From Myxococcota bacterium (GTDB lineage Bacteria > Myxococcota_A > UBA9160 > SZUA-336), in NCBI GenBank assembly GCA_965247115.1, contig CBDFGR010000003.1, positions 1,792,001 through 1,856,000 on the forward strand: 64,000 bases of DNA. The letters run 5' to 3'. The notes below the pieces were generated by a model, which saw only the letters and a program-made list of their open reading frames with translations, did no database searches and was not told the DNA's origin. Both the position numbers and the translations under genes were made by a program. Below are positions 46,223-63,724 of the stretch, piece after piece. Positions within the stretch are counted from its first letter, which is position 1, and the number at the start of each line of letters is the position of its first letter.

Positions 46223-47260
46223 GTGAGTCGCGCGCCCAAGATCGGTCTCCTGCTGATCAATCTCGGAACCCCAAGAAGTCCCGAGGTCCCAGACGTTCGG
46301 CGCTACCTGCGCCAGCTTTTGATGGACGAACACGTGCTCGACATGCCGGCGTGGCGCCGCTTCTTACTGGTCGAGCTGGTGATCGTGCCGCGCAGGGCGC
46401 GTCGCTCCGCCGCGAGCTACGAGAAGATCTGGACGCATCGTGGCTCGCCGTTGCTCACGCACGGACAGGATCTGCGCGACCTCGTGGAGGTGGAGCTGGG
46501 TGACGGAGTCGCAGTAGAGCTCGCCATGCGCTTCGGCGAGCCTTCGATTCGCTCGGCGCTCGACCGGCTCGAGGCGCGGGGTATCGACCGGCTCGTCTTG
46601 TTCCCGCTCTACGCGCAGTCGAGCTCGGCATCGACCGGATCCTCGCTGCAGGCTGTGCAAGCCGAGCTTGCGCGACGCGGCTCGGCTCTCGACCTCGCGG
46701 TCGCCCCCGCGTTCTACGCGGACCCGGCCTATCTCGAAGCGAAGCGGCGACTGGCCGCGCCCGTGATCGCAGAGGTCGACCCCGACCTCGTCCTGTTCAG
46801 CTTTCACGGCGTGCCCGAGCGGCAGCTCAAAGCCCTCGGCCTGGGCTGTCTCGAGAACGGCGGCTGCTGTTCGGCCGAGACCGGCCGGCGCGGCTGCTAT
46901 CGAGCGCAGTGTCTCCTGAGTGCGGAGGCGCTGGCCGAGCAGCTGGGCCTCGCCGGGGACCGGTACGCCGTGAGCTTTCAGTCGCGTCTGGGGCGCACGC
47001 CGTGGATCGCGCCGTTCACTGACCTTGTGCTGGCCGAGCAGGCACAACGCGGCCGTCGCCGCGTCGTGGTGATCAGCGGGTTCGTCGCGGACTGTCTGGA
47101 GACCCTCGAGGAGATCCGCATCCGGGGGCGGGAGATCTGGTTGCAAAACGGCGGCGAGGGCTTCGAGCTCGTTCCCGCCCCGAATGGCAACGCCGCGTGG
47201 GTGAAGGCCCTGGTCGAGATCGCCGGCGAGCATCTGCTGGGTGCGGATCGGAGCTCGTGA
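46223..47260 (+). CDS. hemH: Ferrochelatase
   Basis: LINLGTP, FSFHGVP, FQSRLG, GFVADCLETLEEI. Confidence 0.95.
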   Translation: MSRAPKIGLLLINLGTPRSPEVPDVRRYLRQLLMDEHVLDMPAWRRFLLVELVIVPRRARRSAASYEKIWTHRGSPLLTHGQDLRDLVEVELGDGVAVELAMRFGEPSIRSALDRLEARGIDRLVLFPLYAQSSSASTGSSLQAVQAELARRGSALDLAVAPAFYADPAYLEAKRRLAAPVIAEVDPDLVLFSFHGVPERQLKALGLGCLENGGCCSAETGRRGCYRAQCLLSAEALAEQLGLAGDRYAVSFQSRLGRTPWIAPFTDLVLAEQAQRGRRRVVVISGFVADCLETLEEIRIRGREIWLQNGGEGFELVPAPNGNAAWVKALVEIAGEHLLGADRSS

Positions 47261-48711
47261 TGACCGCCCGTCGCGACAACCCCGACCTGCCACACTTGGA
47301 TGTGGCGATTGTCGGCGGAGGCATCTCCGGCCTCGCGGCCGCGTTTCGTCTGCGTGAGCACGGGAAGTCGACTCGACCGCTTTCGGCGCGCCTGTTCGAA
47401 GCCGGCGGCCGCCTGGGTGGCACGATCCAGACCGAGCGGATCGAGGCGGAACAACGCGGCGAGTGCGTGTGCGAGGCGGGCCCGGATTCGATGGTCACCA
47501 CCAAGCCAGCGGCGATCGAGCTGTGCCGCGAGCTCGGGCTCGGCGCTGCGCTCGCTCCGCCCCGATCCGCCGAGGCCTTCTCCGTGGTCCACGAGGGGCG
47601 GTTGCATGCGTTGCCTGAGGGACTTCGACTGATCGCACCGACCGAGCGCTTGCCGTTGCTGCGCTCTGGCCTGTTCAGCTGGCCGGGTAAGCTGCGGATG
47701 CTACGCGAGTCTCGGGTCGAGGGGCGTGACGGGCTCGCGGCGGATGAGAGCGTGGAGAGCTTCGTTGTGCGGCGCTTCGGCAGGGAGGCCTTCGAGCGTG
47801 TGGCGGAGCCGGTGCTGGGCGGGTTGTTCGTCGCCGACGCGTCGGAGCTGAGCGCGGCCCGCACGCTTGGTTCGTTCGTGGAGCTCGAGCGCCAGTACGG
47901 CAGCGTGCTGCGCGGGCTCCGGGACAACGCGGGAGCATCGAGCTCGCCAGCCCAGCTGACACTCGGACACGGACTCGGCTCGCTCGTAGAACGACTGTCG
48001 GAGCGGATCCCACCGAGCTGGATCGAGCTCGACTGTGCTGCGAAGCAGATTCAACCCCTGCCAGGAGCGGGGTGGCAGATCGAGACGGCTCGGGGGATGT
48101 GGCTGGCGCGCCACGTGGTTCTCGCCTGCCCGGCGCCGCGCTGCAGCGCGATGCTGAGTGCCGCAGCCCCGACCCTGGCGAGCGCGCTTGGCGAATTGCG
48201 CTTCGCCTCCTGTGTCACCGTCAACCTGGTGTACCGACGCGGGGAGGTCGCTCGCCTTCCGGACGACTTCGGCTTCTTCGTGCCGCGGTCAGAGCAGAAT
48301 CACATTCTCGCCGCAACCTACGCGAGTGAGAAGTTCGCCGCTCGGGCGCCGGAGGGCTACGTCGTAGTGCGTACGTTCCAGGGCGGTAGGCTCGATCGCG
48401 GCGCGGTCGATCTCGACGATGAAACCCTGGTCGAGCGCTCGCACCGGGACCTGGCTCGTCTGATTGGCGTGACCGGCCCGGCCCGGGCAACCGGCCTGAC
48501 CCGTTTTCACGAAGCCGTGCCGCAGTTCGATGTCGGGTACGCGGAACGCGTGGCCAGGCTCAACCGCGAGGTCGCAAAACACGAGGGCCTCCACCTCGCA
48601 GGAAGCGCCCTCAGCGCCTACGGTCTGGCCGACTGTGTGGCGTCGGGGGAAGCCGTCGCTGCCACGGTCTGTGCGGGTCTCGCAAAGAGGGAGTCACGAT
48701 GGCGGAGCTAG
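47260..48711 (+). CDS. hemY: HemY-type proto/coproporphyrinogen oxidase
   Basis: GGGISGL, EAGPDS, DESVESFVVRRFG, FGFFVP, GLADCV. Confidence 0.92.
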   Translation: MTARRDNPDLPHLDVAIVGGGISGLAAAFRLREHGKSTRPLSARLFEAGGRLGGTIQTERIEAEQRGECVCEAGPDSMVTTKPAAIELCRELGLGAALAPPRSAEAFSVVHEGRLHALPEGLRLIAPTERLPLLRSGLFSWPGKLRMLRESRVEGRDGLAADESVESFVVRRFGREAFERVAEPVLGGLFVADASELSAARTLGSFVELERQYGSVLRGLRDNAGASSSPAQLTLGHGLGSLVERLSERIPPSWIELDCAAKQIQPLPGAGWQIETARGMWLARHVVLACPAPRCSAMLSAAAPTLASALGELRFASCVTVNLVYRRGEVARLPDDFGFFVPRSEQNHILAATYASEKFAARAPEGYVVVRTFQGGRLDRGAVDLDDETLVERSHRDLARLIGVTGPARATGLTRFHEAVPQFDVGYAERVARLNREVAKHEGLHLAGSALSAYGLADCVASGEAVAATVCAGLAKRESRWRS

Positions 48712-49934
48712 CCGACTACAAGCCCTCCCTGATCTCCTGGAACCTGACGAGGGCGTGCAACCTGCGCTGCCCGCACTGCTACATGGAGGGCGGACGGAAG
48801 GCAGAGAACGAGCTCACGACGGAGGAATGTCTGGGCCTGATCGACGAGATCAAGGCCCTCGGCACCGAAATGCTGATTCTGACCGGCGGCGAGCCGTTGC
48901 TGCGCAAGGACATCTACGACATCGCCCGCTACGCATCGAAGCGGGGGATCTGGGTCGTGATGGGGACCAACGGGGTTCTGGTCACCGACAGGGTCGTCCA
49001 CAAGATGATCGAGTGCGGTGTGAAGGGTGTGGCCATCAGCATCGATTCGCTCGAGCCAGCGAAACACAACCACTTTCGCGGCGGGCCGGATGCGTGGGAG
49101 TACTCGGTACGCGCGCTGGAGATCTGTCGGGCCAATGGCCTTCAAGTCCTGGTCCAGACCACGGTCATGGACATGAACTACGCCGAGATTCCCAAGCTGC
49201 TGGAGTTTGCCCGCGAGAAGGGGGCCTGGTCCTTCAATCTTTACTTCCTCGTCCAGACCGGCCGCGGCCAGCAGATGAACGATCTCTCGTCGGAACGGAC
49301 GGAAGCCATGCTCGCTCAGCTGGTGGACTGGCAGGATCGGTACCGTCCCATGCTGGTGCGCTCCAAGTGTGCGCCGCAGTTCAAGCAGATCGCCTACGAG
49401 AGGGGAGTGGGAGGTCTGGAGAGCGGCGGCTGCATGGCCGGCACCCAGTACTGTCGGATCACACCACAGGGCGACGTGACCCCGTGTCCCTACATGACCG
49501 CCGTCGCAGGCAACGTGCGTGACCAGAGCTTTGGCGAGATCTGGCGGACGTCATCCGTCTTGCGAGAGCTTCGCGACCTCTCGCAGCTCAAGGGACGCTG
49601 CGGCCGCTGCGAGTTCAACGAGCTGTGCGGCGGCTGCCGCTGCCGGGCCTACGCGGTCCACGGAGACTATCTGCAAGAGGACCCGGCCTGCCGCTATCAG
49701 CCAACCGGACGAACGCTCCAGCTCGCGGCCGTTCGCTGGAGCCCGGAAGCGGAGGCTCGGTTGGAGCGCATCCCCCTCGCCTTCATCCGCGGGAAGGTGA
49801 GGCAAGGCCTGGAGACCTACGCGGAACGCCAGGGGATCGACCTGATCACACCCGACGTGATGAAGGAAGCCCTGGCTGGCGAGGAGCGATCCGAGATGTT
49901 CGGCAAGCTGCCGCGCTTGTCAAAGCCGGACTGA
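48699..49934 (+). CDS. Radical SAM/SPASM protein (AhbC/AhbD/NirJ-like) with a C-terminal PCP_red-like domain
   Basis: CNLRCPHC, TGGEP, SPASM GCMAG...PCPY...CGRC...CGGCRCRA...DPAC; tail WSPEAEARLERIPLAFIRGKV. Confidence 0.9.
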   Translation: MAELADYKPSLISWNLTRACNLRCPHCYMEGGRKAENELTTEECLGLIDEIKALGTEMLILTGGEPLLRKDIYDIARYASKRGIWVVMGTNGVLVTDRVVHKMIECGVKGVAISIDSLEPAKHNHFRGGPDAWEYSVRALEICRANGLQVLVQTTVMDMNYAEIPKLLEFAREKGAWSFNLYFLVQTGRGQQMNDLSSERTEAMLAQLVDWQDRYRPMLVRSKCAPQFKQIAYERGVGGLESGGCMAGTQYCRITPQGDVTPCPYMTAVAGNVRDQSFGEIWRTSSVLRELRDLSQLKGRCGRCEFNELCGGCRCRAYAVHGDYLQEDPACRYQPTGRTLQLAAVRWSPEAEARLERIPLAFIRGKVRQGLETYAERQGIDLITPDVMKEALAGEERSEMFGKLPRLSKPD

Positions 49935-49943
49935 GGGCCCCTT

Positions 49944-50360
49944 CTACATCCCGAAGAAGCTTCTGGCTTCCTCGAGCACCTCCACATCGATCTGCGCCAG
50001 CCCGCGGTCCTTGGCGAACTTCTCGATCCCGGTCTTGGCCATCGGACGCGCGAAGTCTGGGATGTTTGCCAGCCGCTCGCTCGCCTCGGGTGTCCACGGA
50101 AACGCCGCGCTCGAGCCGTCGAGGCTCGCGCCCATCTCCTGCATCACGCCGGGGAACGGGCACTTGCCGGCTGAGTCACCCTCGGGGCCGACCTGCACGC
50201 CCAGCGAGCCGACCACCTGGGTTTCGTAGGGATTCGTCAGCATGGCGAACTCGTGAGCGCACTCCGGACAGCGATACACGACGGTGAGTGAGCCTCGATC
50301 GGGCGGCTTCGCGTCGATCAGCTTCATGGCCTTGTCGCACGACACGCAGAGGAACTTCAT
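49944..50360 (-). CDS. Small zinc-ribbon (CxxC..CxxC) plus PCP_red-like protein
   Basis: FLCVSC, YRCPEC, KCPF, WTPEASERLANIPDFARPMAK. Confidence 0.8.
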   Translation of the reverse strand: MKFLCVSCDKAMKLIDAKPPDRGSLTVVYRCPECAHEFAMLTNPYETQVVGSLGVQVGPEGDSAGKCPFPGVMQEMGASLDGSSAAFPWTPEASERLANIPDFARPMAKTGIEKFAKDRGLAQIDVEVLEEARSFFGM

Positions 50361-51250
50361 GCTTTCTCCTCGAAGGCGGGGGCGGGCTCGGCGACGCGTT
50401 GGCAGACCCCCTCCGCGATCCGCCGCACGGGCTGCCAGGAAACCAGTTCGGGCACTTCGCAGGGGGAGCCGCCCCGATCGCAGAGCGCAGCTAGCTCGGG
50501 GTCGAAGGGTACGCTACCCAGGCACGGAAGATCGAGCTTCACCTGTGACTGCGCGGGGAACAGAGGCTTGACCTGCCCGCAGTCGGAGCAGTAGTAGCCG
50601 TCCATGTTACAGACGTACCCCAGGATCCGGTTCGGGGTCCTCGCGAGTGCATCGACCGAGCGCGTCACGACCCCGGTCGCCAGATCGGAGGGAATCGTGA
50701 CCAGCACGAATAGAGTCGCGGGGCCCAGGAGCTCGGCGTACTGCACGATCCGTTCGGCGCCCGGGGGCAGGTCGATCAGGAGGTAGTCGAGCTTCCCCCA
50801 GTCCATGCATGCCATGAGCTCACGCAGGAACGTGAACTCCTTGGTTGCCCGCCAGGTGTGCGACGACCCGTTCGCCACATTCTCGAACTCGACGGAACGC
50901 GGCTCGGGGATCAGGCTGCCCATCGAGACCACGCCGATCCCGTTCCGCGTCGTCGGAACCGGAGCCCCGCTCTCGCCAGGAAACAGCGGCCGGTCTTGCA
51001 CCGCTCCCAGGCGTGCCTGCGAAGGGCCGTTCAGATCGGCGTCCAGGATCGAGACCGTCTTCCCCAGCTCGCGCAGCGCGTACGCGAGCTGCATCGTGAG
51101 CGTGCTCTTCCCCACGCCCCCCTTGCCGGAACCGACGGCCAGCAGGTTCCGCACGCCGGAAAGGCTCCGGGTCACACTCTCCTGCTGGGCCTCGACCTGC
51201 TGCAGGATGTCGGATCCTCCGTCCCCTGCAATGTCGTGGTAGCTCTTCAC
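50357..51250 (-). CDS. Mrp/NBP35 (ApbC-like) P-loop ATPase
   Basis: GKGGVGKST, DADLNGPS, DYLLIDLPPG, NM...CSDC, LGSVPFDP. Confidence 0.9.
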   Translation of the reverse strand: MKSYHDIAGDGGSDILQQVEAQQESVTRSLSGVRNLLAVGSGKGGVGKSTLTMQLAYALRELGKTVSILDADLNGPSQARLGAVQDRPLFPGESGAPVPTTRNGIGVVSMGSLIPEPRSVEFENVANGSSHTWRATKEFTFLRELMACMDWGKLDYLLIDLPPGAERIVQYAELLGPATLFVLVTIPSDLATGVVTRSVDALARTPNRILGYVCNMDGYYCSDCGQVKPLFPAQSQVKLDLPCLGSVPFDPELAALCDRGGSPCEVPELVSWQPVRRIAEGVCQRVAEPAPAFEEKA

Positions 51251-51266
51251 GCTCTACTCCGCGGCA

Positions 51267-52142
51267 TCATCGCTGCGTTCGCGAGTCCGGGTTCGCCACG
51301 TAGCGGGTGTACGTTCGCGCACGCTGGAAGCCCATGGACTCGAGCCTATCCCATGAGATCTCCTCGCTCGAGACCCTCGGAATCGTCACCACGAGGGAGC
51401 CCGCCTGGCTAGCGACTCGAACCACCATCTCCAGCAGGACACGGGCCTCTGCTTCGCCGTCGCTCAGCTGTGTTCCGCCCAGGCCGACGATCTCGCGCTG
51501 ACCGTGTCGGGGAAGGTCGCGGAACAGCGCGCAGGCCTCGACCCGCGTCTCGGACGCGATGGCCAGCCCCTGGATCTGGTCCTTCCGGTTCTGCAGCGTG
51601 TCCAGGGCTCGCTCCCAGCTGCGGGAAACGGACGGGTCGAGGGCTCCGTAGCGCAGGAGGTCGTCCAGGCTGGCGGGGCTGACCACAGCCGTGTTCGCCG
51701 GGGGCGCGAGCGGCTTTGGCAGTGTGAAGTCGGCAAAGCTGTGCTCCGCCTCGTACCCGACGGCCTCGAACAAGGCGCCTACCGTCGGCAGGTCGTCGGG
51801 CACCTCCGCCACCATCCGGGGGGGACCCAGTACGGCGAGCTTTTGGCTCAGTGAGTCGAGCAGGTGCCGGGCGTGGCCTCGCCGCAGGAAGTCCGGATGG
51901 ACGCCGATCCTGTGGATCAGGGTTTCGCGTTCCCGCTTGGCGCCCGTGACCACGCCGATGGGATCGCGGTCGGCCGACGCCACCATGCAGCTGCTGCACC
52001 AGACGTTGAGCTCGCGGATCTCCCGCTTGAAATCCCCCGTGGACAGCGCGGCTTGATCCGAAAAGTGAACGGTGTAGCACGCGTTCAGCGCGTCGGTCAG
52101 GAGCGCGATGTCGTCGGTTCTGCAGAAGCGGTAAGCGGGCAT
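51267..52142 (-). CDS. GNAT family N-acetyltransferase
   Basis: IGVHPDFLRRGHARHLL acetyl-CoA-binding motif. Confidence 0.8.
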   Translation of the reverse strand: MPAYRFCRTDDIALLTDALNACYTVHFSDQAALSTGDFKREIRELNVWCSSCMVASADRDPIGVVTGAKRERETLIHRIGVHPDFLRRGHARHLLDSLSQKLAVLGPPRMVAEVPDDLPTVGALFEAVGYEAEHSFADFTLPKPLAPPANTAVVSPASLDDLLRYGALDPSVSRSWERALDTLQNRKDQIQGLAIASETRVEACALFRDLPRHGQREIVGLGGTQLSDGEAEARVLLEMVVRVASQAGSLVVTIPRVSSEEISWDRLESMGFQRARTYTRYVANPDSRTQR

Positions 52143-52152
52143 GGTCTGGTCA

Positions 52153-52268
52153 GGCGGGTTATCGGCGGGCGGAGCCCGCCTGCCCGAACGGCCAGCCTAC
52201 GGCTGGCCTCGGGCGGGTTATCGGCGGGCGAAGCCCCCTTGCCCGAACGGTCAGCCTACGGCTGGCCT
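52153..52268. repeat. Two tandem ~57-bp units (period 59), each with hairpins
   Basis: ggcgggttatcggcgggcg..gcccgaacggYcagcctacggctggcct, twice. Confidence 0.9.
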
Positions 52269-52271
52269 GGG

Positions 52272-54347
52272 TCACTCCTGTTTCTCCCCGGACCCCTCTT
52301 GCTGGGTCAGGAGCAGCCGCATGGCCGCCAGCTCGTTCATCGGGCTCACCTCGTTCAGCGGCTCGTCGCCAGTGCTGCTCGCCTCGGACTCGCGTTTTTG
52401 TGCGGCGGGGCACTGCGCGGCTGCGGCGCGTTCGTCGCGGCGCTCGTTTTCAGAGTCGACACCATTCTGGGAGACCATCTCGGCCATCATCTGCAGGCCG
52501 AGCTCGATACCGGCTTCGACGCGCGGGAGGTCGATCTCCCCACCTGCCGCCTCCCGAGCCAGCTCCTCGATCCGCGCCTGGGTCCGGTCTCGCATGAAGC
52601 CGGCGGGGACGCGTTGGATGCGCGCGATCGCGTCCTCGGTCCAGTCGAATTCAGAGAACAGCGGCGCGCGCCGGGCATCCCGCGCGATCAATCTCTTTCC
52701 ATCCGTCTCGGCCTCGGCGATCCGCTCGGCGTCCTCCGCGCCCTGCTCCGGCGCGGCGGCGAAGGGCAGGCCCGTCTCCTCCTCGATCAGCTTCCGGGCG
52801 AACTCGAGCGTCACGGTCTTCTGCCTCCGCAGCCGGGCTGACTTCTCGATCCGCGCCTTCGTGCGCCGCCGCAGGTAGGCCTCTTCGATTCCGAGCATCG
52901 CTCGGCGGGCCTCTTTGGTCCATTGCAGCTTGCGTCCGTCGTAGCTCGGCTCGTCGGCGGCCCCGCCCTCGCTCTTGACGAGGCGCTCGACCATCTCGGC
53001 CGTCAGGATCTCGAAGCTCGTGCCGCCACATACACTACACAGTGCGGGGTCGGGCTCGCGCGCGGTCAGCCCGCAGCTCTCGCACACGGCCACGGCCTGC
53101 TCCTGCGACCTACCGATGGCGACCGCCTCCGCCAGCCTGTTCATCGGGGCTTGCTTGGGCATGAAGCGCGCCATCGCTTCGTCCAAGAGCGAGCTGGTGA
53201 CGACGCTGTGACCCTTCTCCAGCGCCAGCCGCAAGATCGCCGTGCGCGCGATGCCCACGACCAGCTTGGGAACGCGCTCCATCCGCTCCTCGGCTTCTCG
53301 AGTCCACTTGATGCTCTCCTCCGCGCGGACGTCGAGCTCGGGCCGAGCGACTCGCGTGGTCAGCAGAATGTCGCACTCGGAGAGCCGCAGAAGGTTCTCC
53401 GAATTGCTCCCCAGGTTGGGGTCGTCCGGATCGCTGTGGACCCCGATCCGGCCCAGCACGAGCAGCCAGGGCTTGGTCTTGGTCGCGTGGTCGTGGATCT
53501 TCTGAAAGGTCTTGCCGTCGAGGAGGGTCTTGCCGACCTCGGTGCCCTCTGCGCCCGCCATCTGGTGGGCGACTTCCAGGTGAGACTGGTAGATCTGGGC
53601 GAGGCCGGTGTCGATGATCTCCTCGTGGAGCTGGTTCTGCTCCTCGAAGCGGAAGACCTTCGACGCCTTCTCGGTGAGGGTCCCGACCAGCCCGTTGAAT
53701 ACGAGGTAGTGGAGGTAGGGGTCGTACACGCCGATGAGCTCGACTCGCTTGTTGAACGCCCTGGCCAGCTCGAGCGCGGTCTCCAGCGCCCCGAACGACT
53801 GCGGGCTCCCGTCGATGCCGACGAGGATCGTGTCCCGCTCCGGCTCGTCCTTCTTGGGCACGTGCTTCGTCACCCAGACGTCCTGGGAACACGAACGGGC
53901 CACGCGCTCGCAGACCGATCCGATCTGGCTGTCGCGCTGACGTCCGAGACCCAGCGCTCCCAGGACCACCAGGTCGCAGTCCGACTCTTCCAGATCCCGG
54001 CGGATCTCGACGTGATGCTTCCCGTCGATCATGCGGCCCTCGAAAGGCAGCTCCTCTCTTGCGCAGCGCTGTTTCATGCTTTCGAGGTAGCTGTCCGAGA
54101 TCAGCTCGAGCCCCATGGTGATCAGGCTGTCGTGGATCTTCCGCTGCCGCTCGAGCTCGTTCTCCTCCAGATACTCTTCCGGGAGCGAGTACTCCATCTG
54201 CTTGAAGCGGTAGTCGTGCATCTTGGCCGCGTAGACGTGACAGCCCACCAACTCGGAGCTGAAGGCCTTGCCGACGCGCACCGCGGACTCGATGGCCCGG
54301 TTGGAGTGTGCCGAGTTGTCGACGGGCACGTAGATCTTCTTGTACAT
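52272..54347 (-). CDS. Tandem universal stress protein with a rubredoxin-like CxxC pair and three PCP_red-like domains
   Basis: YKKIYVPVDNS and ILVGIDGS USP starts, GSVCERV, CESC..CSVC, three W-T-x-E/D-A units; GGAGG RBS. Confidence 0.88.
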   Translation of the reverse strand: MYKKIYVPVDNSAHSNRAIESAVRVGKAFSSELVGCHVYAAKMHDYRFKQMEYSLPEEYLEENELERQRKIHDSLITMGLELISDSYLESMKQRCAREELPFEGRMIDGKHHVEIRRDLEESDCDLVVLGALGLGRQRDSQIGSVCERVARSCSQDVWVTKHVPKKDEPERDTILVGIDGSPQSFGALETALELARAFNKRVELIGVYDPYLHYLVFNGLVGTLTEKASKVFRFEEQNQLHEEIIDTGLAQIYQSHLEVAHQMAGAEGTEVGKTLLDGKTFQKIHDHATKTKPWLLVLGRIGVHSDPDDPNLGSNSENLLRLSECDILLTTRVARPELDVRAEESIKWTREAEERMERVPKLVVGIARTAILRLALEKGHSVVTSSLLDEAMARFMPKQAPMNRLAEAVAIGRSQEQAVAVCESCGLTAREPDPALCSVCGGTSFEILTAEMVERLVKSEGGAADEPSYDGRKLQWTKEARRAMLGIEEAYLRRRTKARIEKSARLRRQKTVTLEFARKLIEEETGLPFAAAPEQGAEDAERIAEAETDGKRLIARDARRAPLFSEFDWTEDAIARIQRVPAGFMRDRTQARIEELAREAAGGEIDLPRVEAGIELGLQMMAEMVSQNGVDSENERRDERAAAAQCPAAQKRESEASSTGDEPLNEVSPMNELAAMRLLLTQQEGSGEKQE

Positions 54348-54382: not shown

Positions 54383-55927
54383 TCACGACTCTCGGACCTC
54401 CTGGTGCGCGGGTGCCTGCGGCTGCTCATTCGCCCAGCGCCGGCGAAAGGCGCGAAGCCCGATCATCTCGCCGACGGCCGCCAGGAAGATCACGGCGATC
54501 GGCCAGACGTAGGCCGTGAGCGGCGTTTCGGGCTCGAGCAACAGGTAGTACCAGCGAGAGATCGCGCGCTGCTTGCCTTCTTCGTTGCGATCGCCGTCCC
54601 AGATGTTCCAGGCGATCGGGATCATCTGGCCGGGCGTAAAGGCGACCTCGTCGTCCTGGCTTGCCCCCAGGCTGCGGCGCAAGACGACCCGGTACTGCCC
54701 ATCCTGGTACGCGCCGACGGCGCTCACCGGCGAGGGCCGGGGTGTCACGTCGTCCATGCCACGGGTCAGGAAGGTCTCGGTCTCGCCTCCGGCGCTCCAT
54801 TGCCAGCTATCGACCGGACGTCGGCGGTCGCCCATCAGGAAATAGGGCTTCTTTCCCTCCTCGAGCTCACGCGCGGGGAAGAGGACCGACACCCGATCGG
54901 TCGGCCTGGCGTTGCTGCCATCATCGTGGAACCGGTCGTGCCAGACGAGGAGCAGGGCGAGCTCGCGCTCGTCGAACAGGACCCGTGCGTTCACGCTCTG
55001 AACCGAGGGATTGAACAGCCTCGGTCGCTGGATGATCTGCCCGGCCATGCGGACGTCGAGTGCCGGAACCTCGTCCCAGGCCGGCGCGAACGGATCGTCG
55101 GGAATGGAGTCGGTCTTCGTACCCCGTACGATCTCGCCCCAGACGGGCTTGCGGCCGATGCTCTCGGTGTAGTTCGCCAGGTGCGCCAGATCCTCGTGGG
55201 CCCACGCGTCGGAGAAGGAGGGCATGGGCGTACCGTTCACGCCCGTTGTCAGGGTCCTGTAGATATCCTGTGCGGTGCTTCCGCCGCGCAGGACCCAGGG
55301 CTGGGTGAGGTCGGCGGGCCAGATCTTGTTTCCCCACTCGTCCTCTTGCTCGGATGCCGAGGGTCCGTTCCCGCGCCCGCTCTCGCCATGGCACTTGGCG
55401 CACTCCGCCTTCACGTAGACCTCGGCGCCGCGTGCAAGGCTCTCGGGCGAGGCCTCTGGCAGCCCGTCGATCAGGAACTCCTGCTCCGCGGGGTAGTCCG
55501 CGAAGTCCTCGCTGAAGCTCTTGAGGTAGTCCACCAGCTGCCAGATCTGCTCGTCGCTGAGGATCCCCTGCCACTCGGGCATGGAGGTGCCGGGCATGCC
55601 CTTGCGGACGATCTGGAACAGATCGAGGTCGGTCGGGAGCTCGCCCTGCATCGTCGTGCGAATCTTGTAGACGCCTCGCCGGAAGTCCCTGGGACGCGGG
55701 TCGAGCAGGTCGGCCATCAAGCCCTGGCCATCCCCCTCCGCTCCGTGGCACTGCTCGCAGTGGTCGGCGTACAGCGCCTTCCCGGCGGCCAGATTCTCTG
55801 GGCTGGTCTCGCGAGGGCTCGGCGGAGCCAGACGGAAGCCGCGCGACTCGAAGTCCTGCGCCGTTGCGCCGGCGGGCAAGAGAAGTGCGCCGGCGAGCAG
55901 GGCTATGACGCAGCGTGCGTGCGTCAT
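54383..55927 (-). CDS. Diheme cytochrome c with an EB_dh/DOMON-like domain and a C-terminal TM anchor
   Basis: Signal peptide, CEQCH, CAKCH, GTSMP, GTPMP, KPYFLMGD, IAWNIWDG. Confidence 0.88.
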   Translation of the reverse strand: MTHARCVIALLAGALLLPAGATAQDFESRGFRLAPPSPRETSPENLAAGKALYADHCEQCHGAEGDGQGLMADLLDPRPRDFRRGVYKIRTTMQGELPTDLDLFQIVRKGMPGTSMPEWQGILSDEQIWQLVDYLKSFSEDFADYPAEQEFLIDGLPEASPESLARGAEVYVKAECAKCHGESGRGNGPSASEQEDEWGNKIWPADLTQPWVLRGGSTAQDIYRTLTTGVNGTPMPSFSDAWAHEDLAHLANYTESIGRKPVWGEIVRGTKTDSIPDDPFAPAWDEVPALDVRMAGQIIQRPRLFNPSVQSVNARVLFDERELALLLVWHDRFHDDGSNARPTDRVSVLFPARELEEGKKPYFLMGDRRRPVDSWQWSAGGETETFLTRGMDDVTPRPSPVSAVGAYQDGQYRVVLRRSLGASQDDEVAFTPGQMIPIAWNIWDGDRNEEGKQRAISRWYYLLLEPETPLTAYVWPIAVIFLAAVGEMIGLRAFRRRWANEQPQAPAHQEVRES

Positions 55928-56674
55928 TCAGTGCCCCTCCGCGGAGCTCGACGCCCGCGGCGTGTAGCCTGCGGCGTCGTAGATGTAGGCGACCACCTGC
56001 CAGATCTCTTCTTCTGTCAGAAGGTCCTGCCAGATCGGCATGGAGGAGTTCCAGGGAGTCGCACCGTCCGGGAGCCCGGGACCGCCTGTGGCGACGCGCC
56101 AGAAGACGTAGGTCTCCTCCAGCTGCGCGATCGTGCCGCTGTCGCGAAAGTTGGCCGGCAGCGGGTTCACCGCGTCGGCGAAGTGGCCCTGCCCGTTCAG
56201 GTAGTCGCCATGGCAGTACATGCAGTTGCGGTAGTAGACGCGTCGACCCGCGGCGAGGTTCTCCGCGTTCACCTCCATGCCCTCAGGACGGTGGCCGCCG
56301 AGCACATCGAAGTCAGCCCCGTGCAGGCGGAAGATCGCCGGGGGCTCGGGGTGAATCACGCGAGCCTCGAACGGCGGGTCGAAGCGCGGCCGGACGCTGT
56401 TGAACGTGTACCAGCCGAGTAGCAGCGGAACGGCGACGAGCACCCCCAGCCTGGGAGCGGCGAGATGGCGCTCCCGCAACAGTGTCACGAGGGGGGCCAG
56501 AAAGGCCGCCGTGCGTTCCTGGTCGGCCAGGATGTACACGAGGATGGCGACGGTGGTGATCGCCATGTACAGGCCCATGACCTGGCCCGGGATCGGCGGC
56601 TGGACGCCGAACCGGAGCGCCGCCCACACCCCGAGCCAGACGAGCGCAGCCAGCGGGAGCGCGAGCCTACGCAT
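55928..56674 (-). CDS. Membrane-anchored monoheme cytochrome c
   Basis: N-terminal TM segments, CMYCHG, SSMPIW. Confidence 0.88.
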   Translation of the reverse strand: MRRLALPLAALVWLGVWAALRFGVQPPIPGQVMGLYMAITTVAILVYILADQERTAAFLAPLVTLLRERHLAAPRLGVLVAVPLLLGWYTFNSVRPRFDPPFEARVIHPEPPAIFRLHGADFDVLGGHRPEGMEVNAENLAAGRRVYYRNCMYCHGDYLNGQGHFADAVNPLPANFRDSGTIAQLEETYVFWRVATGGPGLPDGATPWNSSMPIWQDLLTEEEIWQVVAYIYDAAGYTPRASSSAEGH

Positions 56675-57587
56675 TCTGGTCTCCAGACGCGACTGCCCGA
56701 CGGATCGCCAGCCTGCGCATGATCCACACCCCCCCGTTGAACAGCACGATCAGGGACACGAGCGGCACTGCCGGGTGGGCGAGGCGCTCGGAGAGCGACA
56801 CCTCGCCCGAGAGGTAGCTCACGATCTGGTCGAGCTCCTCGGTTGGCACCGTCTCTGCGAAGTCCTGCAGCATGAGTCCCGGCGGGAAGCCCTCCGCGAT
56901 GACGGAGTTCGGATCCGTGATCGACTGGCGGATCTCCGCTGCCGACAGCCGCTCGCGCACGTTCGTGAGGGGAGGGCCCACGAGCCGGATGGTTCCGTTC
57001 ACGTCGTGGCACGCGATGCAGCCGTGCCTGGTGACGAGGTCCCTGCCCGGGTGGGTGTCGACCGCGGCCGTCGGTTGCTCCTTCTTGGTCGCCGCTGCTG
57101 CAACATCTTGGGCCGTGATCTCGACCGTGACCTCGCCGCCGAGCGACTGCAGGTAGGCGATCAGCGCCTTGAGCTCGGTCGGGGCCAGGTCTGCCGGTGG
57201 CAGGGTCGCGACCGGCATGATGGTCAGGCCGCCGGCGGCGGCGAACTCCTCGACCACGTACGCGCCCGGGTCGACGAGCGATTCGACCAGGTAGGCCTCG
57301 GCGCTCATGCCAGGCTTGCGCGACGCGGCCCGGGCGCCTATGCCGCGGAGATCGGGCCCGCGGTTGTTTCCCTGCTCGGTGACCTTGTGGCAGAGCAGGC
57401 AACCCCCCCTCGCTCCGAGCAGGGTTCTGCCCATGCTGACCAGTGCGTCGGTATCGGTGTCGACGCTGATCTCTAGCTCGGGCGGCGGATGCTCCTCCGT
57501 CTGCGTCAACCAGAACTGACCGATCGACCCGTAGAAGACGGTGATCACGATCACGAACAGGAGGATTCTCAGGAAGACGGCTCTCAC
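56667..57587 (-). CDS. Membrane-anchored diheme cytochrome c
   Basis: CLLCH, CIACH, N- and C-terminal TM segments. Confidence 0.88.
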   Translation of the reverse strand: MRAVFLRILLFVIVITVFYGSIGQFWLTQTEEHPPPELEISVDTDTDALVSMGRTLLGARGGCLLCHKVTEQGNNRGPDLRGIGARAASRKPGMSAEAYLVESLVDPGAYVVEEFAAAGGLTIMPVATLPPADLAPTELKALIAYLQSLGGEVTVEITAQDVAAAATKKEQPTAAVDTHPGRDLVTRHGCIACHDVNGTIRLVGPPLTNVRERLSAAEIRQSITDPNSVIAEGFPPGLMLQDFAETVPTEELDQIVSYLSGEVSLSERLAHPAVPLVSLIVLFNGGVWIMRRLAIRRAVASGDQNA

Positions 57588-59338
57588 GTCGCCAGTCGCT
57601 CCCGCCGCTCGGAGCGCATCGCCAGAGCGAACACCCCCGCGACGAACAGGAAGAACGTGATGACGATGATCGACACGACCATGGTCGCGAACCCGTGGGT
57701 CGGGATGTACGCGCCCTCGCTCGTGTCGCGCATGACCTGATAGACGTGCCAGTGCTGGCGGACGCCGGAGCGGATGTAGCCCATCAGTCCCATCAGCCAG
57801 GTGAAGGTGGCGGCCAGGAAGAACAGCACGTACTGCGAGAGCCTCGGCATCTGGCCCCAGCGGATCTCACCGAGCGACTGCGCTCCGCGGAACGCCGGAC
57901 CCTCGATCGCGAGGAACAGCACCATGAAGGCGCCGACCATGAGCGGCTGGTAGCCGGACAGCCCGACGCGCACGGCAGCGGGGACGAAGTAGCCGTAGAT
58001 CCCGATCCAGACGATCCCGACGATGACCGCCGCGAAGGCCAGGCCCTGGATCCAGTTGCCGAGGACGGCGAAGCCCGCCGTGGCCAGCTTGTTGCCGCGC
58101 CGGTACAGCATGAACGTGATGAACGTGGAGATGATCATCAGGTTCACGGCGGTGTTCTTGGCAGACATGACGCCGAGCACGCCGAGCCTGGGGTGGTGCG
58201 CCGCGCCCATCGCCTGCATCTCGGCGAACGTCGCGATGATGGTGTGGGGCGTCGCCCAGACCGCGAGGCCGGTCGCCAGAACGATCAGCACCGGGGCCTG
58301 GAACACGCGATAACGCTCGCCGCCGGGGATGCGGCCCATGGCCAGCCACAGGTAGAGGTTGATCGCCAGGAACAGCGAGCCGATCAGGATGGCCTGCAGA
58401 ATCCACAGCTGGGCGAAGGAGCCGCCCATCATCGACACGCCCATCTGCTGGCTGTACGTGTAGATCTCAAGCCCGAGGTAGTAGCCGGCGAACGGCAGGG
58501 GGATGAAGGCAGCGACGGCGATGAAGCTCCCGATGTACCCCATCCAGTCGTAGTTGGCCCGTTCCTCGTCGTCGGTCGCCGCCAGGAAGCGGAAGGCGGC
58601 ATAGGCGCCCACGATGGCTCCGCCGAAGCACACGTTGGCGAGCAGCCGGTGGATGTTCAGTGGGTTCCAGGCGAAGTTCATGAAGGCGTCGGCCCGGCTG
58701 GTGACCGTGATGGCCAGGTCGGTGCCCTCGATGCCGCCCGGAGTCATCATGTAGCCCGTCCAGGCGTTCGTGATGACCAGGATCGCGATTCCCCCGACGT
58801 TGACCATCACTCCCAGGAAGATGTGCCAGCCCTTGCGCGGCCCCTGGAGCAGGTCCCACGTGTACCAGTACAGGTACGCGAACAGCGCCTCTCCGAAGAT
58901 CACGGCCACGTAGAAGCCCCAGGTGGGGTCGAACACCTTCTCCATGTGGGAGACGAACCTGGGGTAGAGCCCGACCAGCGCCACCAGCAAGAGCGCGCCG
59001 AGGGTGGCGGTGATCGTGTAGCTCATTGCCAGAAGGCGGGTGAAATCCTTGGCCAGTCCGTCGTAGCGCTCGCTCTTCGTGACGAAGCCGAGCACCTCGG
59101 CGATCAGCGCGAAGATCGGCACGCCCAGCACGAAGGCAGCGAAAAGGAGGTGACCTTGGGCCAGGCACCAGACGAGCACGCGGCTGCCGATCACGGGGAA
59201 GTGGCGGTAGTCGGCGGCCTCGAACGCCTGCGGCAGCAGCCAGACCAGGAGATAGACGCCGGTGAGGATGAGCGAGACCTTCAGAACCCCGCCGCGAACT
59301 CCCCCCAGGGCTCCCGGCCAGCTCTTGGCCTCGGCCAT
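57584..59338 (-). CDS. Cytochrome bd ubiquinol oxidase subunit I-like (bd-like) membrane protein
   Basis: AQGHLLFAAFVLG, YMMTP, NIHRLLAN, MGYIRSGVRQHW (diverged GRQPW region); many TM segments; no cydB nearby. Confidence 0.8.
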   Translation of the reverse strand: MAEAKSWPGALGGVRGGVLKVSLILTGVYLLVWLLPQAFEAADYRHFPVIGSRVLVWCLAQGHLLFAAFVLGVPIFALIAEVLGFVTKSERYDGLAKDFTRLLAMSYTITATLGALLLVALVGLYPRFVSHMEKVFDPTWGFYVAVIFGEALFAYLYWYTWDLLQGPRKGWHIFLGVMVNVGGIAILVITNAWTGYMMTPGGIEGTDLAITVTSRADAFMNFAWNPLNIHRLLANVCFGGAIVGAYAAFRFLAATDDEERANYDWMGYIGSFIAVAAFIPLPFAGYYLGLEIYTYSQQMGVSMMGGSFAQLWILQAILIGSLFLAINLYLWLAMGRIPGGERYRVFQAPVLIVLATGLAVWATPHTIIATFAEMQAMGAAHHPRLGVLGVMSAKNTAVNLMIISTFITFMLYRRGNKLATAGFAVLGNWIQGLAFAAVIVGIVWIGIYGYFVPAAVRVGLSGYQPLMVGAFMVLFLAIEGPAFRGAQSLGEIRWGQMPRLSQYVLFFLAATFTWLMGLMGYIRSGVRQHWHVYQVMRDTSEGAYIPTHGFATMVVSIIVITFFLFVAGVFALAMRSERRERLAT

Positions 59339-59527: not shown

Positions 59528-60274
59528 GTGGACAACCGACTCATTCTTGTAGCAGCTTGCCTGGCCTTCCTTCTGCCCGCGACGGGCGGCGGCCAGGAAG
59601 ACAAGGCCTGGGACCCCGCGATGGGCACCGCGACCATCACGGGGAGCGTCAAGTTCAACGGAAAGAAGCCGCGCACGCGGCCCATCGACATGGCTGGCGC
59701 AGACGAGAAGTGCGCGGAGCTTCACGGCGGCAAGAGGCTCCGGCCGGACACCGTCGTCTTGAACGAGAACGGAACGCTTCGGAACGTCTTCGTCTGGGTC
59801 AAGTCGGGCGCCGAGGGCTGGAGCTTTCCGATGCCCGATGGAGACGTTCTGCTGGACCAGAACGGCTGTACGTACGCCCCTCACGTGCAGGGCATGCGGA
59901 CGGGCCAGTCGCTGTCTGTCAAGACCAGCGATCCCACGGCGCACAACGTCCACGGCTACGCGAAGGTCAACCGCTCGTTCAATCGCTCCCAGCCAGCCGG
60001 TGCCGCCAATGTCTCCATCAGGATGAGACGGGATGAGGCGAGCCCCCCGATGAAAGTCAAGTGCGACATTCATCCCTGGATGAACGCGTACGTAGCCGTG
60101 GTGGACCATCCCTACTTTGCGGTGACCGGGGACGACGGCTCATTTACGCTGTCGAATCTCCCCCCAGGCACCTACACGATCGAGGTCTGGCACGAGAAGT
60201 ACGAGACGATGGAGCAGACCATCACCATCGGCGACAACGAGTCCCAGGCACTCGACTTCACTTACGAAGGCTGA
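59528..60274 (+). CDS. Secreted protein with a cupredoxin-like His/Cys/Met site and a carboxypeptidase-regulatory-like domain
   Basis: Signal peptide, LDQNGCTYAPH, HNVH, VKCDIHPWM, FAVTGDDGSFTLSNLPPGTY. Confidence 0.8.
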   Translation: MDNRLILVAACLAFLLPATGGGQEDKAWDPAMGTATITGSVKFNGKKPRTRPIDMAGADEKCAELHGGKRLRPDTVVLNENGTLRNVFVWVKSGAEGWSFPMPDGDVLLDQNGCTYAPHVQGMRTGQSLSVKTSDPTAHNVHGYAKVNRSFNRSQPAGAANVSIRMRRDEASPPMKVKCDIHPWMNAYVAVVDHPYFAVTGDDGSFTLSNLPPGTYTIEVWHEKYETMEQTITIGDNESQALDFTYEG

Positions 60275-60287
60275 CAGGGGGAACCCA

Positions 60288-61049
60288 ATGGACCAACCGG
60301 AATACGGCTGGTGGCTGCCACCGGACGTCTCCGTCCACGGCGCCGACGTCGATCTTCTCATGAACATGATCCACTGGTTCATGCTGGCGCTGTTCGTCGG
60401 TTGGAGCCTGTTCATCGTGTACTGCCTCGTGCGCTTCCGCCAGCGCACTGGCCACGTCGCCATCTATGAACCGATCAAGGCGAAGCTCTCCAAGTGGCTC
60501 GAGGTGGGAGTGGCCGTGGCGGAGTTCGTCGTCCTGATCGGGCTCGCTGTACCCGTATGGGCGCAGCTCAAGACCATCACACCCGTGACCCCTGAGAACC
60601 CGCTGGTCGTGCGCGTGGTGGCGGAGCAGTTCAAATGGCTGTTCCACTACCCTGGGCGGGACGGCCTGTTCGGGGCCACGGGCGTAGAGCACTACAGCGA
60701 TGACAACCCCGCCGGACTGGACTATGACGACGAGGACGGGATCGATGACATCACGGTGCGAGGCTTCCACTTTCCGGTGGGGCGGCCGGTGATCGCGCGC
60801 CTGACTGCCAAGGACACGATCCACAGCTTCAAGATGCCGGTCATGCGGATCACACAGGACGCGGTCCCCGGCATCGAGATCCCCGTCTGGTTCGAGGCGA
60901 AGGACACGGGCAGGTTTCAGCTGGGGTGCGCGCAGCTGTGCGGCCTCGGTCACTACGAGATGAAGGCAGATCTCGTCATCGAGTCACCCGAGGACTTCCA
61001 GAAGTGGCTGGATGAGGAGCACGCATACCTGGGGTTGGACGATGAGTGA
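60288..61049 (+). CDS. coxB: Cytochrome c oxidase subunit II
   Basis: DTIHSF, DAVPG, CuA motif CAQLCGLGHYEM. Confidence 0.95.
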   Translation: MDQPEYGWWLPPDVSVHGADVDLLMNMIHWFMLALFVGWSLFIVYCLVRFRQRTGHVAIYEPIKAKLSKWLEVGVAVAEFVVLIGLAVPVWAQLKTITPVTPENPLVVRVVAEQFKWLFHYPGRDGLFGATGVEHYSDDNPAGLDYDDEDGIDDITVRGFHFPVGRPVIARLTAKDTIHSFKMPVMRITQDAVPGIEIPVWFEAKDTGRFQLGCAQLCGLGHYEMKADLVIESPEDFQKWLDEEHAYLGLDDE

Positions 61050-62766
61050 TACGCACTCCGAGCTGGGTTTCTGGAGCAAGTACGTCTTCTCCACGGACCA
61101 CAAGACGATCGGGATCCAGTACGGGCTGACCTCGCTGGTCTTCCTGTTCTTTGGCTTCTGCCTGATGATGATGATGCGCTGGCAGCTGGCCTATCCGGGT
61201 GAGGCGATCCCGGTCATCGGTGCGATGCTCAGCGATTCCCTGGTAGATGACGGCGCCATGCTGCCCGACTTCTACAACCAGCTCGGCGCCATGCACGGCA
61301 CCATCATGGTCTTCATGGGGATCGTGCCGCTCGCGGTCGGAGCGTTCGGCAACTACGTCGTTCCCCTGCAGATCGGCGCGCCGGACATGGCCTTCCCGCG
61401 CCTGAACATGATGAGCTACCAGGCGTTCGTCATCGGCGGCATCGTGATGCTGGCGAGCTTCTTTCTGCCGGGCGGCGCGGCGAGCTCGGGCTGGACCTCG
61501 TACGCTCCGCTCTCGGTCATCGCGACCATGGGGCAGACGGCCTGGCTGGTCGGCATGATCTTCCTGATCGCGTCCTCGCTCCTGGGGGCGATCAACTTCA
61601 TCACCACGATTGTCCACCTGCGGGCGGAGGGCCTTACGTTCTTCCGCCTGCCTTTCTTCGTCTGGTCTCAGCTGGTGACTGCGTTCCTGCTGCTGCTGGC
61701 GTTCCCGCCGCTCCAGGCCGCGGCCGTCTTCCAGCTGATGGACCGCCTGGCCGATACGAGCTTCTTCATGCCGAGCGGGCTCGTGGTGGGCGGCGAGCTG
61801 GCCGTCAATGCCGGCGGCGGCAGCCCCCTGCTCTGGCAGCACCTGTTCTGGTTCCTGGCCCATCCCGAGGTGTACGTCCTGATCCTGCCCGGCATGGGAA
61901 TCGTGGCCGAGGTGATCGCCAACAACACCCGCAAGCCCCTGTGGGGCTACCGCACCATGGTGTACTCGCTGCTGATTCTGGGATTCCTGTCCTTCACTGT
62001 GTGGGCGCACCATATGTACCTGACGGGCATGGGAACCACGATGTCGAGCTTCTTCCAGACCACCACCATGATCATCTCGATCCCGTCGGTGATCATCCTG
62101 TCCTGCCTTGTGCTCAGCTTGTGGGGTGCTTCAATCCGGTTCCCCGTTTCCATGCTGTTCGCGGTGGCCTTCCTGCCCATGTTCGGCATCGGCGGGCTCA
62201 CGGGGCTGCCCCTGGGGCTGGCGGTCCCGGACGTCTACCTGCACGACTCCTACTACGTGATCGGGCACTTCCACTACGTGGTCGCCCCCGGCACGATCTT
62301 CGCAATGTTCGCGGGCATCTATCACTGGTACCCGAAGATCACCGGCCGCTCGTTGAACGAGGCGCTCGGAAAGGCGCACTTCTGGCTGTCGCTCGTCTTC
62401 ATCAACGGAGTATTCATGCCCATGATGTTCGAGGGCATGGCGGGGGTGAGTCGGCGCCTCTTCGATCCCACCATCTACGACGTCGGAGCAGGAGCTCACG
62501 GCCTGACCATGATCACTTCCTGGTCGGCTTGGCTGCTCGCACTGTCGCAGCTCCCGTTCATCTACAACTTCTTCGCGAGCATGCGCAAGAAGGAGCGGGC
62601 TAGCCAGAATCCCTGGCAGGCGACCACGCTCGAGTGGGCGGCACCATCTCCGCCGCCGCACGGCAACTTCACGGAGCCGCTGGTCGTGGTTGCGGGACCC
62701 TACGAGTACAGCGTACCGGGAGCTCCGAACGACTTCTCACCGCAGTACGCGACGCGAGGGGGCTGA
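61042..62766 (+). CDS. coxA: Cytochrome c oxidase subunit I (A-family)
   Basis: [40 protein letters not shown]. Confidence 0.97.
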
Positions 62767-62770
62767 AGCA

Positions 62771-63400
62771 GTGGAAGTAGTCATTCCCTACCGCACCGAG
62801 CCGCATCCGATCACGGGCGTCACCAGCGGGAAGCTCGGCGTCTGGCTGTTCCTCGCGTCCGAGGTCATGCTCTTCGGGGCGCTCTTCTCGTCGTACGTGC
62901 TGCTCCGGGTCGGCTCGTTGCCCGAGTTCTGGCCGACGGGCGTCGACGCCGGTCTGAACGTGCCGATCGGCACGTTCAATACAATGGTGCTGATCACCTC
63001 GAGCATCACGATGGTCATGTCGTGGGCCTCGCTCAAGATGAACCAGCTTGGCGCCTTCAAGGCCTACTTCGGCGCCACGATCGGGCTCGGCCTGGTCTTC
63101 CTCATCGTCAAGGGCTTCGAGTACGGCGACAAGTTCGGCCACCACATCTTCCCCGCCACCGGCTGGCCGGATGCTGCCAGCCCGTCCACGTTCTACGCCA
63201 TCTACTTCACGCTGACCGGACTGCACGGCCTGCACGTGCTGTTGGGCATCCTCGTCAATCTGTGGCTGCTGATCTGGGGGACCAGGTTGTGGCAGACCGA
63301 CCGAGAGCGCTTCGCCGGCAGGATCGAGATCGCCGGACTCTACTGGCACTTCGTGGATCTGGTCTGGATCTTCCTCTTCCCCGTGCTCTACCTTCTATAG
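62771..63400 (+). CDS. coxC: Cytochrome c oxidase subunit III
   Basis: [29 protein letters not shown]. Confidence 0.95.
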
Positions 63401-63409
63401 GGAACCATC

Positions 63410-63724
63410 ATGAGCGAATCAGCAGAAGACATTCGAGAGCACGTCCGAGTCTACGTGATGGTATTCGTGGCCCTGGCCTGCTTGACGGTGGTCACGGTTG
63501 CGATCTCGTACATCGGCATGCCGACGGCTCTCGCGATCTGTATGGCCATGGTCGTGGCCAGCGTGAAGGCGGGCCTGGTGGCCGGATTTTTCATGCACCT
63601 GATAACAGAGCAGAGGGTAATCATCTGGCTCCTCGTGCTCTCTGCGGCCTTCCTCGTCTTCCTGGTGTTCCTTCCCCTTTGGACGGAGTCCGGGATTGCC
63701 CCGTTGTGGCCGCTCACGGGCTGA
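63410..63724 (+). CDS. Cytochrome c oxidase subunit IV
   Basis: KAGLVAGFFMHL, 3 TM segments. Confidence 0.88.
   Translation: MSESAEDIREHVRVYVMVFVALACLTVVTVAISYIGMPTALAICMAMVVASVKAGLVAGFFMHLITEQRVIIWLLVLSAAFLVFLVFLPLWTESGIAPLWPLTG

Follow-up and report, generated by a model that had tools for sequence, protein, structure and literature searches.

A conserved pair of PCP_red proteins beside a bd-like oxidase: possible tailoring of a special heme

Why would three proteins encoded next to a bd-like respiratory oxidase carry PCP_red, the domain that ends subunit B (BchB/ChlB) of dark-operative protochlorophyllide reductase (DPOR)? The question is raised by a locus in a Myxococcota genome (assembly GCA_965247115.1, contig CBDFGR010000003.1), of which we analyzed a stretch of 64,000 nucleotides (positions 1,792,001 to 1,856,000), referred to here as the window. 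An earlier note on this DNA had recognized five copies of the motif, on a radical S-adenosylmethionine (SAM) enzyme, a small zinc-ribbon protein and a tandem universal stress protein (USP), and had proposed that they dock these proteins and an Mrp ATPase into one complex that builds or inserts a cofactor for the oxidase. We find a conserved core of two genes, the tandem USP and the radical SAM enzyme. Maturation of a heme cofactor for the bd-like protein is the reading that we favour as well; docking of Mrp is not. A full-text literature search, with most subscription papers and all bioRxiv supplements beyond its reach, yielded no description of this gene set.

All three proteins exceed the Pfam gathering cut-off for PCP_red (PF08369, 32.5 bits): the radical SAM protein in residues 347–391 (51.3 bits), the zinc-ribbon protein in residues 89–133 (61.4 bits) and the USP protein in three stretches (72.8 bits together). 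A six-frame search of the window's own genome (G000, 5.17 Mb, 98% complete) at E ≤ 0.01 gave five matches, every one at this locus. They lie at 49737–49871 (+ strand) in the radical SAM gene, at 49962–50096 (−) in the zinc-ribbon gene, and at 53175–53306, 52800–52922 and 52512–52643 (−) in the USP gene. Taken singly, four of the five are above the cut-off, the exception being the weak middle copy of the USP protein (19.1 bits, E 0.009), so the motif had been named correctly. The copies are only 18–36% identical in pairs, which points to an old set of domains rather than a recent repeat. The zinc-ribbon copy directly matches BchB/ChlB chains (PDB-entries 8VQI, 2YNM and 2KRU) and the stand-alone protein Asr4154 (2L09), which belong to the same family. 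In contrast to DPOR subunit B, the window proteins have no DPOR catalytic domain and spread several copies over partner proteins. Membership of a DPOR (BchLNB) was rejected, since all PCP_red copies of the genome sit on the radical SAM, zinc-ribbon and USP proteins and none on a nitrogenase-like B subunit.

The distribution of the domain was profiled in three samples with 363 genomes: 41 of the window's own class, 201 Acidobacteriota and 121 of a third phylum sample. In the own class, PCP_red was found in five genomes and the bd-like gene in the same five. Among the Acidobacteriota, 15 genomes have a close orthologue of the bd-like gene and all 15 have at least two PCP_red copies; six more with only weak CydA-type matches have none, and the three remaining PCP_red genomes owe the domain to BchB, a short USP fusion and a fragment. 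In the third sample the orthologue occurs in 10 genomes, again all with at least two copies. Together, 30 of 30 oxidase-bearing genomes (27 of 27 without the three seed genomes) have at least two PCP_red copies. As the earlier note had expected, the genes keep company with one another and with the bd-like gene, and they do so in several phyla. The converse fails: the third sample contains 24 genomes with PCP_red but no such oxidase. In a sample of 151 Verrucomicrobiota PCP_red was present in three genomes, the seed with four copies and two with single copies, and a plasmid search returned generic USPs only.

Which of the genes belong to the core was decided by 32 oxidase-bearing genomes. A dedicated Mrp was detected in 24 of them, and the zinc-ribbon protein in exactly these; neither was detected in the other eight, where only ordinary Mrp copies of at most 179 bits occur. 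In six of these eight both the PCP_red USP and the PCP_red radical SAM protein were observed, often within or adjoining the oxidase cassette, and in the other two at least one of the pair. The conserved core therefore consists of the tandem USP and the AhbD-like radical SAM enzyme, and Mrp and the zinc-ribbon protein make up an optional set that comes as a unit. It also follows that PCP_red is not primarily a dock for Mrp.

The radical SAM protein (48699..49934, +) has a SPASM domain and ends in PCP_red. Its top NCBIfam models are NirJ2 (TIGR04055, 357.4 bits), AhbD (TIGR04545, 313.8 bits) and TIGR04053 (285.7 bits), all below their cut-offs of 500, 500 and 395 bits, and peptide-maturase models reach at most 172 bits. 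The eight SPASM cysteines are spaced C224-X20-C245-X17-C263-X37-C301-X2-C-X5-C-X2-C-X17-C331. Together with a CX3CX2C motif this agrees with the published AhbD pattern, CX3CX2C followed by CX20-33CX17CX36-37CX2CX5CX2CX17-35C (PMC10452713). In a quick tree of 41 rows, calculated without bootstrap, the 24 PCP_red-bearing rows from the three samples all fall into one clade (SH-aLRT 100, stem 0.73), separate from TIGR04053 and from the AhbD-like rows, which are the nearest branch. A second tree of this kind with 67 rows agrees. PCP_red is present in 34 of the 40 radical SAM frames in related loci, and the other six are cut or frameshifted. The enzyme thus has the radical SAM core, the eight-cysteine SPASM spacing and the HemY/HemH neighbours of AhbD, but differs from it in the additional C-terminal PCP_red, the separate clade and a distribution that tracks the bd-like oxidase rather than the heme pathway. 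Assignment to TIGR04053 was rejected because of the score and the separate clade. The siroheme-dependent (Ahb) and heme d1 (NirJ) pathways were rejected as well: AhbA/B (NirDLGH; searched with PF17805) gave no match in the 98% complete genome, and TIGR04051 scores 215 bits against a cut-off of 515.

A housekeeping role in heme b synthesis is unneeded in this genome, which encodes HemN, HemJ and a second HemH (45% identical to the window copy), and was discarded; ChdC gave no match there. HemN is also present in two other genomes with the enzyme (G403 and G445). Three further genomes hold AhbD or a close match to it next to the PCP_red enzyme: G489 has an AhbD above the cut-off (524 bits) and a separate PCP_red enzyme (293 bits), in G459 a 494-bit AhbD directly adjoins the PCP_red radical SAM gene, and G041 has a 443-bit AhbD alongside it. 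The enzyme is therefore kept whichever route to heme b is used. In the window it is preceded by HemH ferrochelatase (46223..47260, +) and HemY porphyrinogen oxidase (47260..48711, +), the latter overlapping its start. Of 22 genomes that lack a ChdC-family match, 8 have HemY next to the module, as does none of the 10 genomes with a strong match; in G403, G445, G511 and G250 this HemY is a second copy. In the HemY tree, the window protein falls in with those of three ChdC-positive genomes (support 94). The adjacency pattern would fit coproheme as the substrate; the accessible text of PMC10427985 gave no way to type the substrate of HemY or HemH.

The USP protein (52272..54347, −) comprises 691 residues from an ATG at 54347, in an open reading frame that reaches a GTG at 54386, and has the domain order USP-USP-PCP_red-rubredoxin-like-PCP_red-PCP_red. 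Its predicted structure (pLDDT 80) matches the tandem USPs TTHA0350 (3AB8) and Rv2623 (3CIS), with which it has the fold and the ATP-motif glycines in common. The motif, G-2x-G-9x-G, is what we take to be the USP ATP-binding motif. Its glycines are kept in all 84 cluster representatives (34–73% identity) that cover both USP domains among 152 proteins examined, the spacer in domain 2 being 10 residues, and ATP binding is predicted. Beyond TTHA0350 and Rv2623, the window protein has PCP_red and rubredoxin-like domains and, in each USP domain, a long helical insert bearing a pair of histidines at a spacing of 28 residues (His44/His72 and His213/His241). All 78 close and all 9 distant proteins retain the four histidines, as do 82 of the 84 representatives, and these residues may form a heme or metal site. 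The Cys-Pro motifs that the earlier note had suggested for heme binding fared unevenly: that of the zinc-ribbon protein is kept in every one of 35 aligned rows, whereas the one in the USP tail occurs in just 21 of 70 and was rejected as a heme site. The four histidines are better ligand candidates than the latter. PCP_red copy number varies from 0 to 6 among the USP representatives, some copies being partial. A fusion of USP and PCP_red is mentioned in passing, without a function, for the archaeal Methanomicrobiaceae (PMC12159084).

The client of the module would be the CydA-like membrane protein (57584..59338, −). Its His63 aligns with His21 and its Glu150 with Glu108 of CydA (5DOQ), and it contains long invariant soluble motifs. 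A crude hydropathy scan gave 12 segments; 14 transmembrane helices are a defining trait of OR-N1/N2 oxidases. The gene is followed on the same strand by a membrane-anchored diheme cytochrome c (56667..57587), a membrane-anchored cytochrome c (55928..56674) and a diheme cytochrome c fused to an EB_dh/DMSO-reductase-type heme b domain (54383..55927). A CydA-like N-terminus with the active-site histidine together with cytochrome c and heme-b neighbours is characteristic of OR-N1/N2, to which the protein likely belongs. In make-up, the four respiratory genes correspond to the TO_1 cassette of Ca. Manganitrophus, which contains a CydA-like gene, two cytochromes c and a periplasmic heme-b protein (10.1101/2021.11.15.468770), and to the OR-N family (10.1101/2021.01.16.426971). 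The bd-like cassette of Nitrospira and Nitrospina is a further system of this kind. OR-N bd-like oxidases are widespread and were called uncharacterised in a 2024 paper (PMC10839748). The accessible text of the literature consulted on OR-N, TO_1 and bd-like cassettes names no maturation genes for this family. The bd-like cluster of Nitrospina includes a 'putative zinc finger' protein (PMC3578206), which may correspond to the window zinc-ribbon protein.

Based on domain content, gene order, co-occurrence, the separate radical SAM clade and the conserved histidines, we propose that the PCP_red radical SAM enzyme and the PCP_red tandem USP work as a conserved pair in the cytoplasm, converting an iron-porphyrin into a special heme and passing it on to the bd-like oxidase. 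We prefer this proposal while holding it with slightly less than even confidence. The reaction would start from a propionate-bearing Fe-porphyrin, either coproheme or heme b, for which the additional HemY and HemH of the window would be the source. The AhbD paralogue, predicted to hold three [4Fe-4S] clusters, would alter the porphyrin side chains and yield a product other than ordinary heme b. The USP protein may then bind this product via His44, His72, His213 and His241 and release it under ATP control. Where needed, the dedicated Mrp and the zinc-ribbon protein could load or repair the iron-sulfur (Fe-S) clusters of the radical SAM enzyme. The part of PCP_red would be to pair these proteins or to mediate the hand-over between them, not to offer Mrp a landing site. 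Its fusion to HutW (above the HutW cut-off) and to NIR_SIR-domain proteins in other genomes was counted in favor of the proposal.

The same genes could, however, encode a second heme b synthase. HemY and HemH would make coproheme, the radical SAM enzyme would decarboxylate it as AhbD does, and the USP protein would channel ordinary heme b to the oxidase and its cytochromes, for instance when oxygen is low. The window does have HemH, HemY and the radical SAM gene in one run, the SPASM motif is AhbD-like, and the grouping of the window HemY with ChdC-positive genomes and the lack of module-adjacent HemY in all ten strong-ChdC genomes point the same way. The explanation is kept alive by the occurrence of AhbD in organisms with the coproporphyrin pathway and no other Ahb genes (PMC13564367). 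Yet the enzyme stands in a clade of its own on a long stem, scores below the AhbD cut-off, coexists with true or near-cut-off AhbD, is kept in three genomes with oxygen-independent HemN and follows the bd-like gene in its distribution, all of which argues against a spare heme b synthase. We regard it as a serious but rather doubtful candidate. Heme tailoring and heme b synthesis taken together amount to a heme-handling module for the oxidase, and that is what the locus probably encodes.

Other readings move the heme out of focus. SPASM enzymes include protein and peptide maturases (PMC10452713), and the radical SAM enzyme, with GNAT where present, might modify the oxidase protein itself, for instance by a cross-link or covalent heme attachment, while the USP protein acts as a scaffold that presents the client. 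The tight link to a single client gene and the long invariant soluble motifs of the bd-like protein are consistent with this, but the scores of tetrapyrrole-enzyme models are about double those of peptide-maturase models, HemY and HemH recur next to the module and the clade branches among AhbD-like proteins, and we consider such a modification unlikely. The USP and zinc-ribbon proteins might instead carry no cofactor and regulate the oxidase or the radical SAM enzyme at low oxygen as sensors of ATP, redox state or heme. The fold of TTHA0350 and Rv2623, the rubredoxin-like cysteine sites and the variable number of PCP_red copies would suit a sensor, and UspA proteins next to respiratory clusters rise at low oxygen in Nitrospira marina (PMC8115632). 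This reading leaves the radical SAM enzyme unexplained, and generic USPs would not be expected to keep histidine-bearing inserts and an association with one enzyme and one oxidase nearly as strictly, so that it appears improbable. The four-protein complex of the earlier note, in which PCP_red docks Mrp as the BchB tail supposedly docks BchL, could draw on the overlap of the Mrp and zinc-ribbon genes, on their co-occurrence in 24 of the 24 genomes that have either, and on the dedicated Mrp being a distinct subfamily. Against it stand the eight oxidase-bearing genomes with PCP_red proteins in which no match to the dedicated Mrp or the zinc-ribbon protein was found. PCP_red is also found on unrelated proteins for which no such Mrp is known (HutW, NIR_SIR/ferredoxin proteins, nitrogenase-like subunits and an MFS transporter). 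Fusions of the zinc-ribbon protein with Mrp or the radical SAM enzyme are rare, with 28 longer matches against 3800 of normal length, and mostly singletons. The accessible text of the DPOR literature (PMC12022308, PMC13474568, PMC12518044) makes no statement on the role of PCP_red. We hold such a complex to be very improbable.

Several points weigh against heme tailoring as well. Substrate, product, heme binding and contacts between the proteins are all predictions. The genomes are related and many are incomplete metagenome-assembled genomes, so the co-occurrence counts are not independent events. PCP_red is carried by 27 genomes without the bd-like gene, in part on an MFS transporter and a split-barrel protein for which no link to tetrapyrroles is shown. 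The second helical insert of the USP protein is modelled at a pLDDT of 52–67. Most of the ChdC-negative genomes that lack a module-adjacent HemY have HemY elsewhere, and the copies next to the module represent three lineages placed on either side of the HemY tree, which does not pin down the substrate. A paralogue of AhbD may still have its activity, and one step can be served by two enzymes in the same cell. Finally, in Nitrospira moscoviensis the bd-like cassette is followed by mobA and not by module genes.

A wider form of the tailoring proposal is possible, though on balance we doubt it: OR-N oxidases, the presumed oxygen reductases of nitrite- and manganese-oxidisers and of many uncultured phyla, would carry an undiscovered heme made by the AhbD paralogue and delivered by an ATP-gated four-histidine USP chaperone, and PCP_red would be a general tetrapyrrole hand-over domain that DPOR has in common with them. 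If true, this would mean a new radical SAM reaction on tetrapyrroles, a defined carrier role for a USP and a PCP_red function that is testable outside photosynthesis. The two-gene core, which goes with the bd-like orthologue throughout the sampled genomes, names factors to co-express with the oxidase and suggests where an unusual cofactor might be sought.

Mrp (50357..51250, −) and a GNAT acetyltransferase (51267..52142, −) lie between the PCP_red genes, and Pfam bears out this part of the earlier description (ParA/NUBPL, 173 bits for Mrp). With the Mrp/ApbC/NBP35 Fe-S carrier ATPases the dedicated Mrp has in common the deviant Walker A motif (GKGGVGKST), DxPPG and the C-terminal CxxC; its N-terminus is short and conserved. 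It differs from them in scoring below the NCBIfam cut-offs (ApbC 116 of 348 bits, MrpORP 152 of 450 bits) and in a conserved WRATxEF, at which position ordinary members presumably have WRGP. It is also an extra copy, a second Mrp gene being located elsewhere in the genome, and is coupled to the zinc-ribbon gene, whose start its stop overlaps. Dedicated copies form a subfamily that scores 276–490 bits, as against at most 191 bits for ordinary ones; the copy in G041 is broken. The zinc-ribbon protein (49944..50360, −) is small, with four cysteines and a C-terminal PCP_red, and its model has a pLDDT of 69 and a pTM of 0.37. Predictions of an Mrp dimer with the zinc-ribbon protein, ATP and Mg scored 0.31 and 0.29 (mark 0.32) and are no evidence either way. 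Frames in which Mrp and zinc-ribbon are fused were not used as evidence, because two of the three in the surveyed loci have a scrambled Mrp end and resemble frameshift artefacts.

The three PCP_red proteins had been described as neighbours. They do share one locus, but the radical SAM gene is on the + strand and the zinc-ribbon and USP genes are on the − strand, so that in the window they stem from two transcription directions. A + strand run of SCO, HemH, HemY and radical SAM genes converges with a − strand run that leads from the bd-like gene through the three cytochrome genes to USP, GNAT, Mrp and zinc-ribbon. Gene order was surveyed in the GTDB collection for the best 80 of 353 relatives of the USP protein, which gives a bias to close ones; conserved loci occur in Myxococcota, Acidobacteriota, Opitutales, Binatia, Eisenbacteria and others. 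Most relatives have the radical SAM gene at the end of a single same-strand run of otherwise identical order. In 57 of the 58 loci with at least 6 kb of upstream DNA, the USP gene is preceded by the bd-like gene. Downstream, 48 loci with at least 9.5 kb contain GNAT 44 times (3' of the USP gene), Mrp 37 times, zinc-ribbon 36 times and radical SAM 29 times, the later genes often being displaced by insertions. Two radical SAM sub-lineages, only about 43% identical, fill the module slot (L003 and L010 as against the window), and close relatives with 73–79% identical USP proteins can carry the other type. This suggests that the radical SAM gene was replaced within the module.

An aa3-type oxidase set (carboxypeptidase-regulatory-like protein, COX2, COX1, COX3 and COX4; 59555–63724, +) runs divergently from the bd-like gene; directly outside the window there is a second COX2/1/3 set. 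Such an aa3-type set is near the module in 15–24 of the best 80 loci, including L099. A putative alternative complex III block, labelled from sequences and not by a hidden Markov model, is located upstream of the bd-like gene in 42 of the 80 loci (for example L042:4267-4941); it is not present at the window's locus.

A pair similar to the core in size and order appears in an expression table of N. moscoviensis. A 'modular' UspA gene of 2106 nt (NITMOv2_0498, rank 152, 9-fold the median) directly precedes a radical SAM gene of 1383 nt (NITMOv2_0497; PMC6606698). The sizes fit the USP and radical SAM genes, the likeness being one of size and order alone, and the pair is far from the bd-like cassettes. 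Among the rows listed, the neighbours of the N. moscoviensis mrp gene NITMOv2_2065 are unrelated. In the Atlas, a cluster with PCP_red and rubredoxin domains is commonest in Nitrospirota (score 0.81, a lead only), and USP + PCP_red clusters occur in further phyla.

Short USP-USP-PCP_red proteins without the histidine inserts were found in two loci (L141:6017-7024 and L144:7166-8164), between ctaB/SCO genes for heme-copper oxidase assembly and a B12-binding radical SAM gene with DUF4070. A metagenome scan with this short type gave two loci, both with USP followed by radical SAM. PCP_red also occurs in other settings. In nine oxidase-less genomes of the third sample that were examined it is carried by NIR_SIR/ferredoxin, nitrogenase-like, split-barrel-like, MFS transporter and HutW proteins. 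The HutW/ChuW heme-degrading radical SAM protein, which is above the HutW cut-off, has an N-terminal PCP_red (L155:4237-5808, genome G503), and a family of about 265–290 residues combines an N-terminal PCP_red with NIR_SIR and ferredoxin domains in genomes without the bd-like gene (L147–L151 and L156). The domain ends nitrogenase-like subunits, an adjoining split-barrel-like protein and an MFS transporter (L153, L154 and L152; G431 and G499), and G431 contains eight copies. In one locus (L010:5772-6689) a 306-residue protein with a C-terminal PCP_red is placed between the cytochrome and USP genes.

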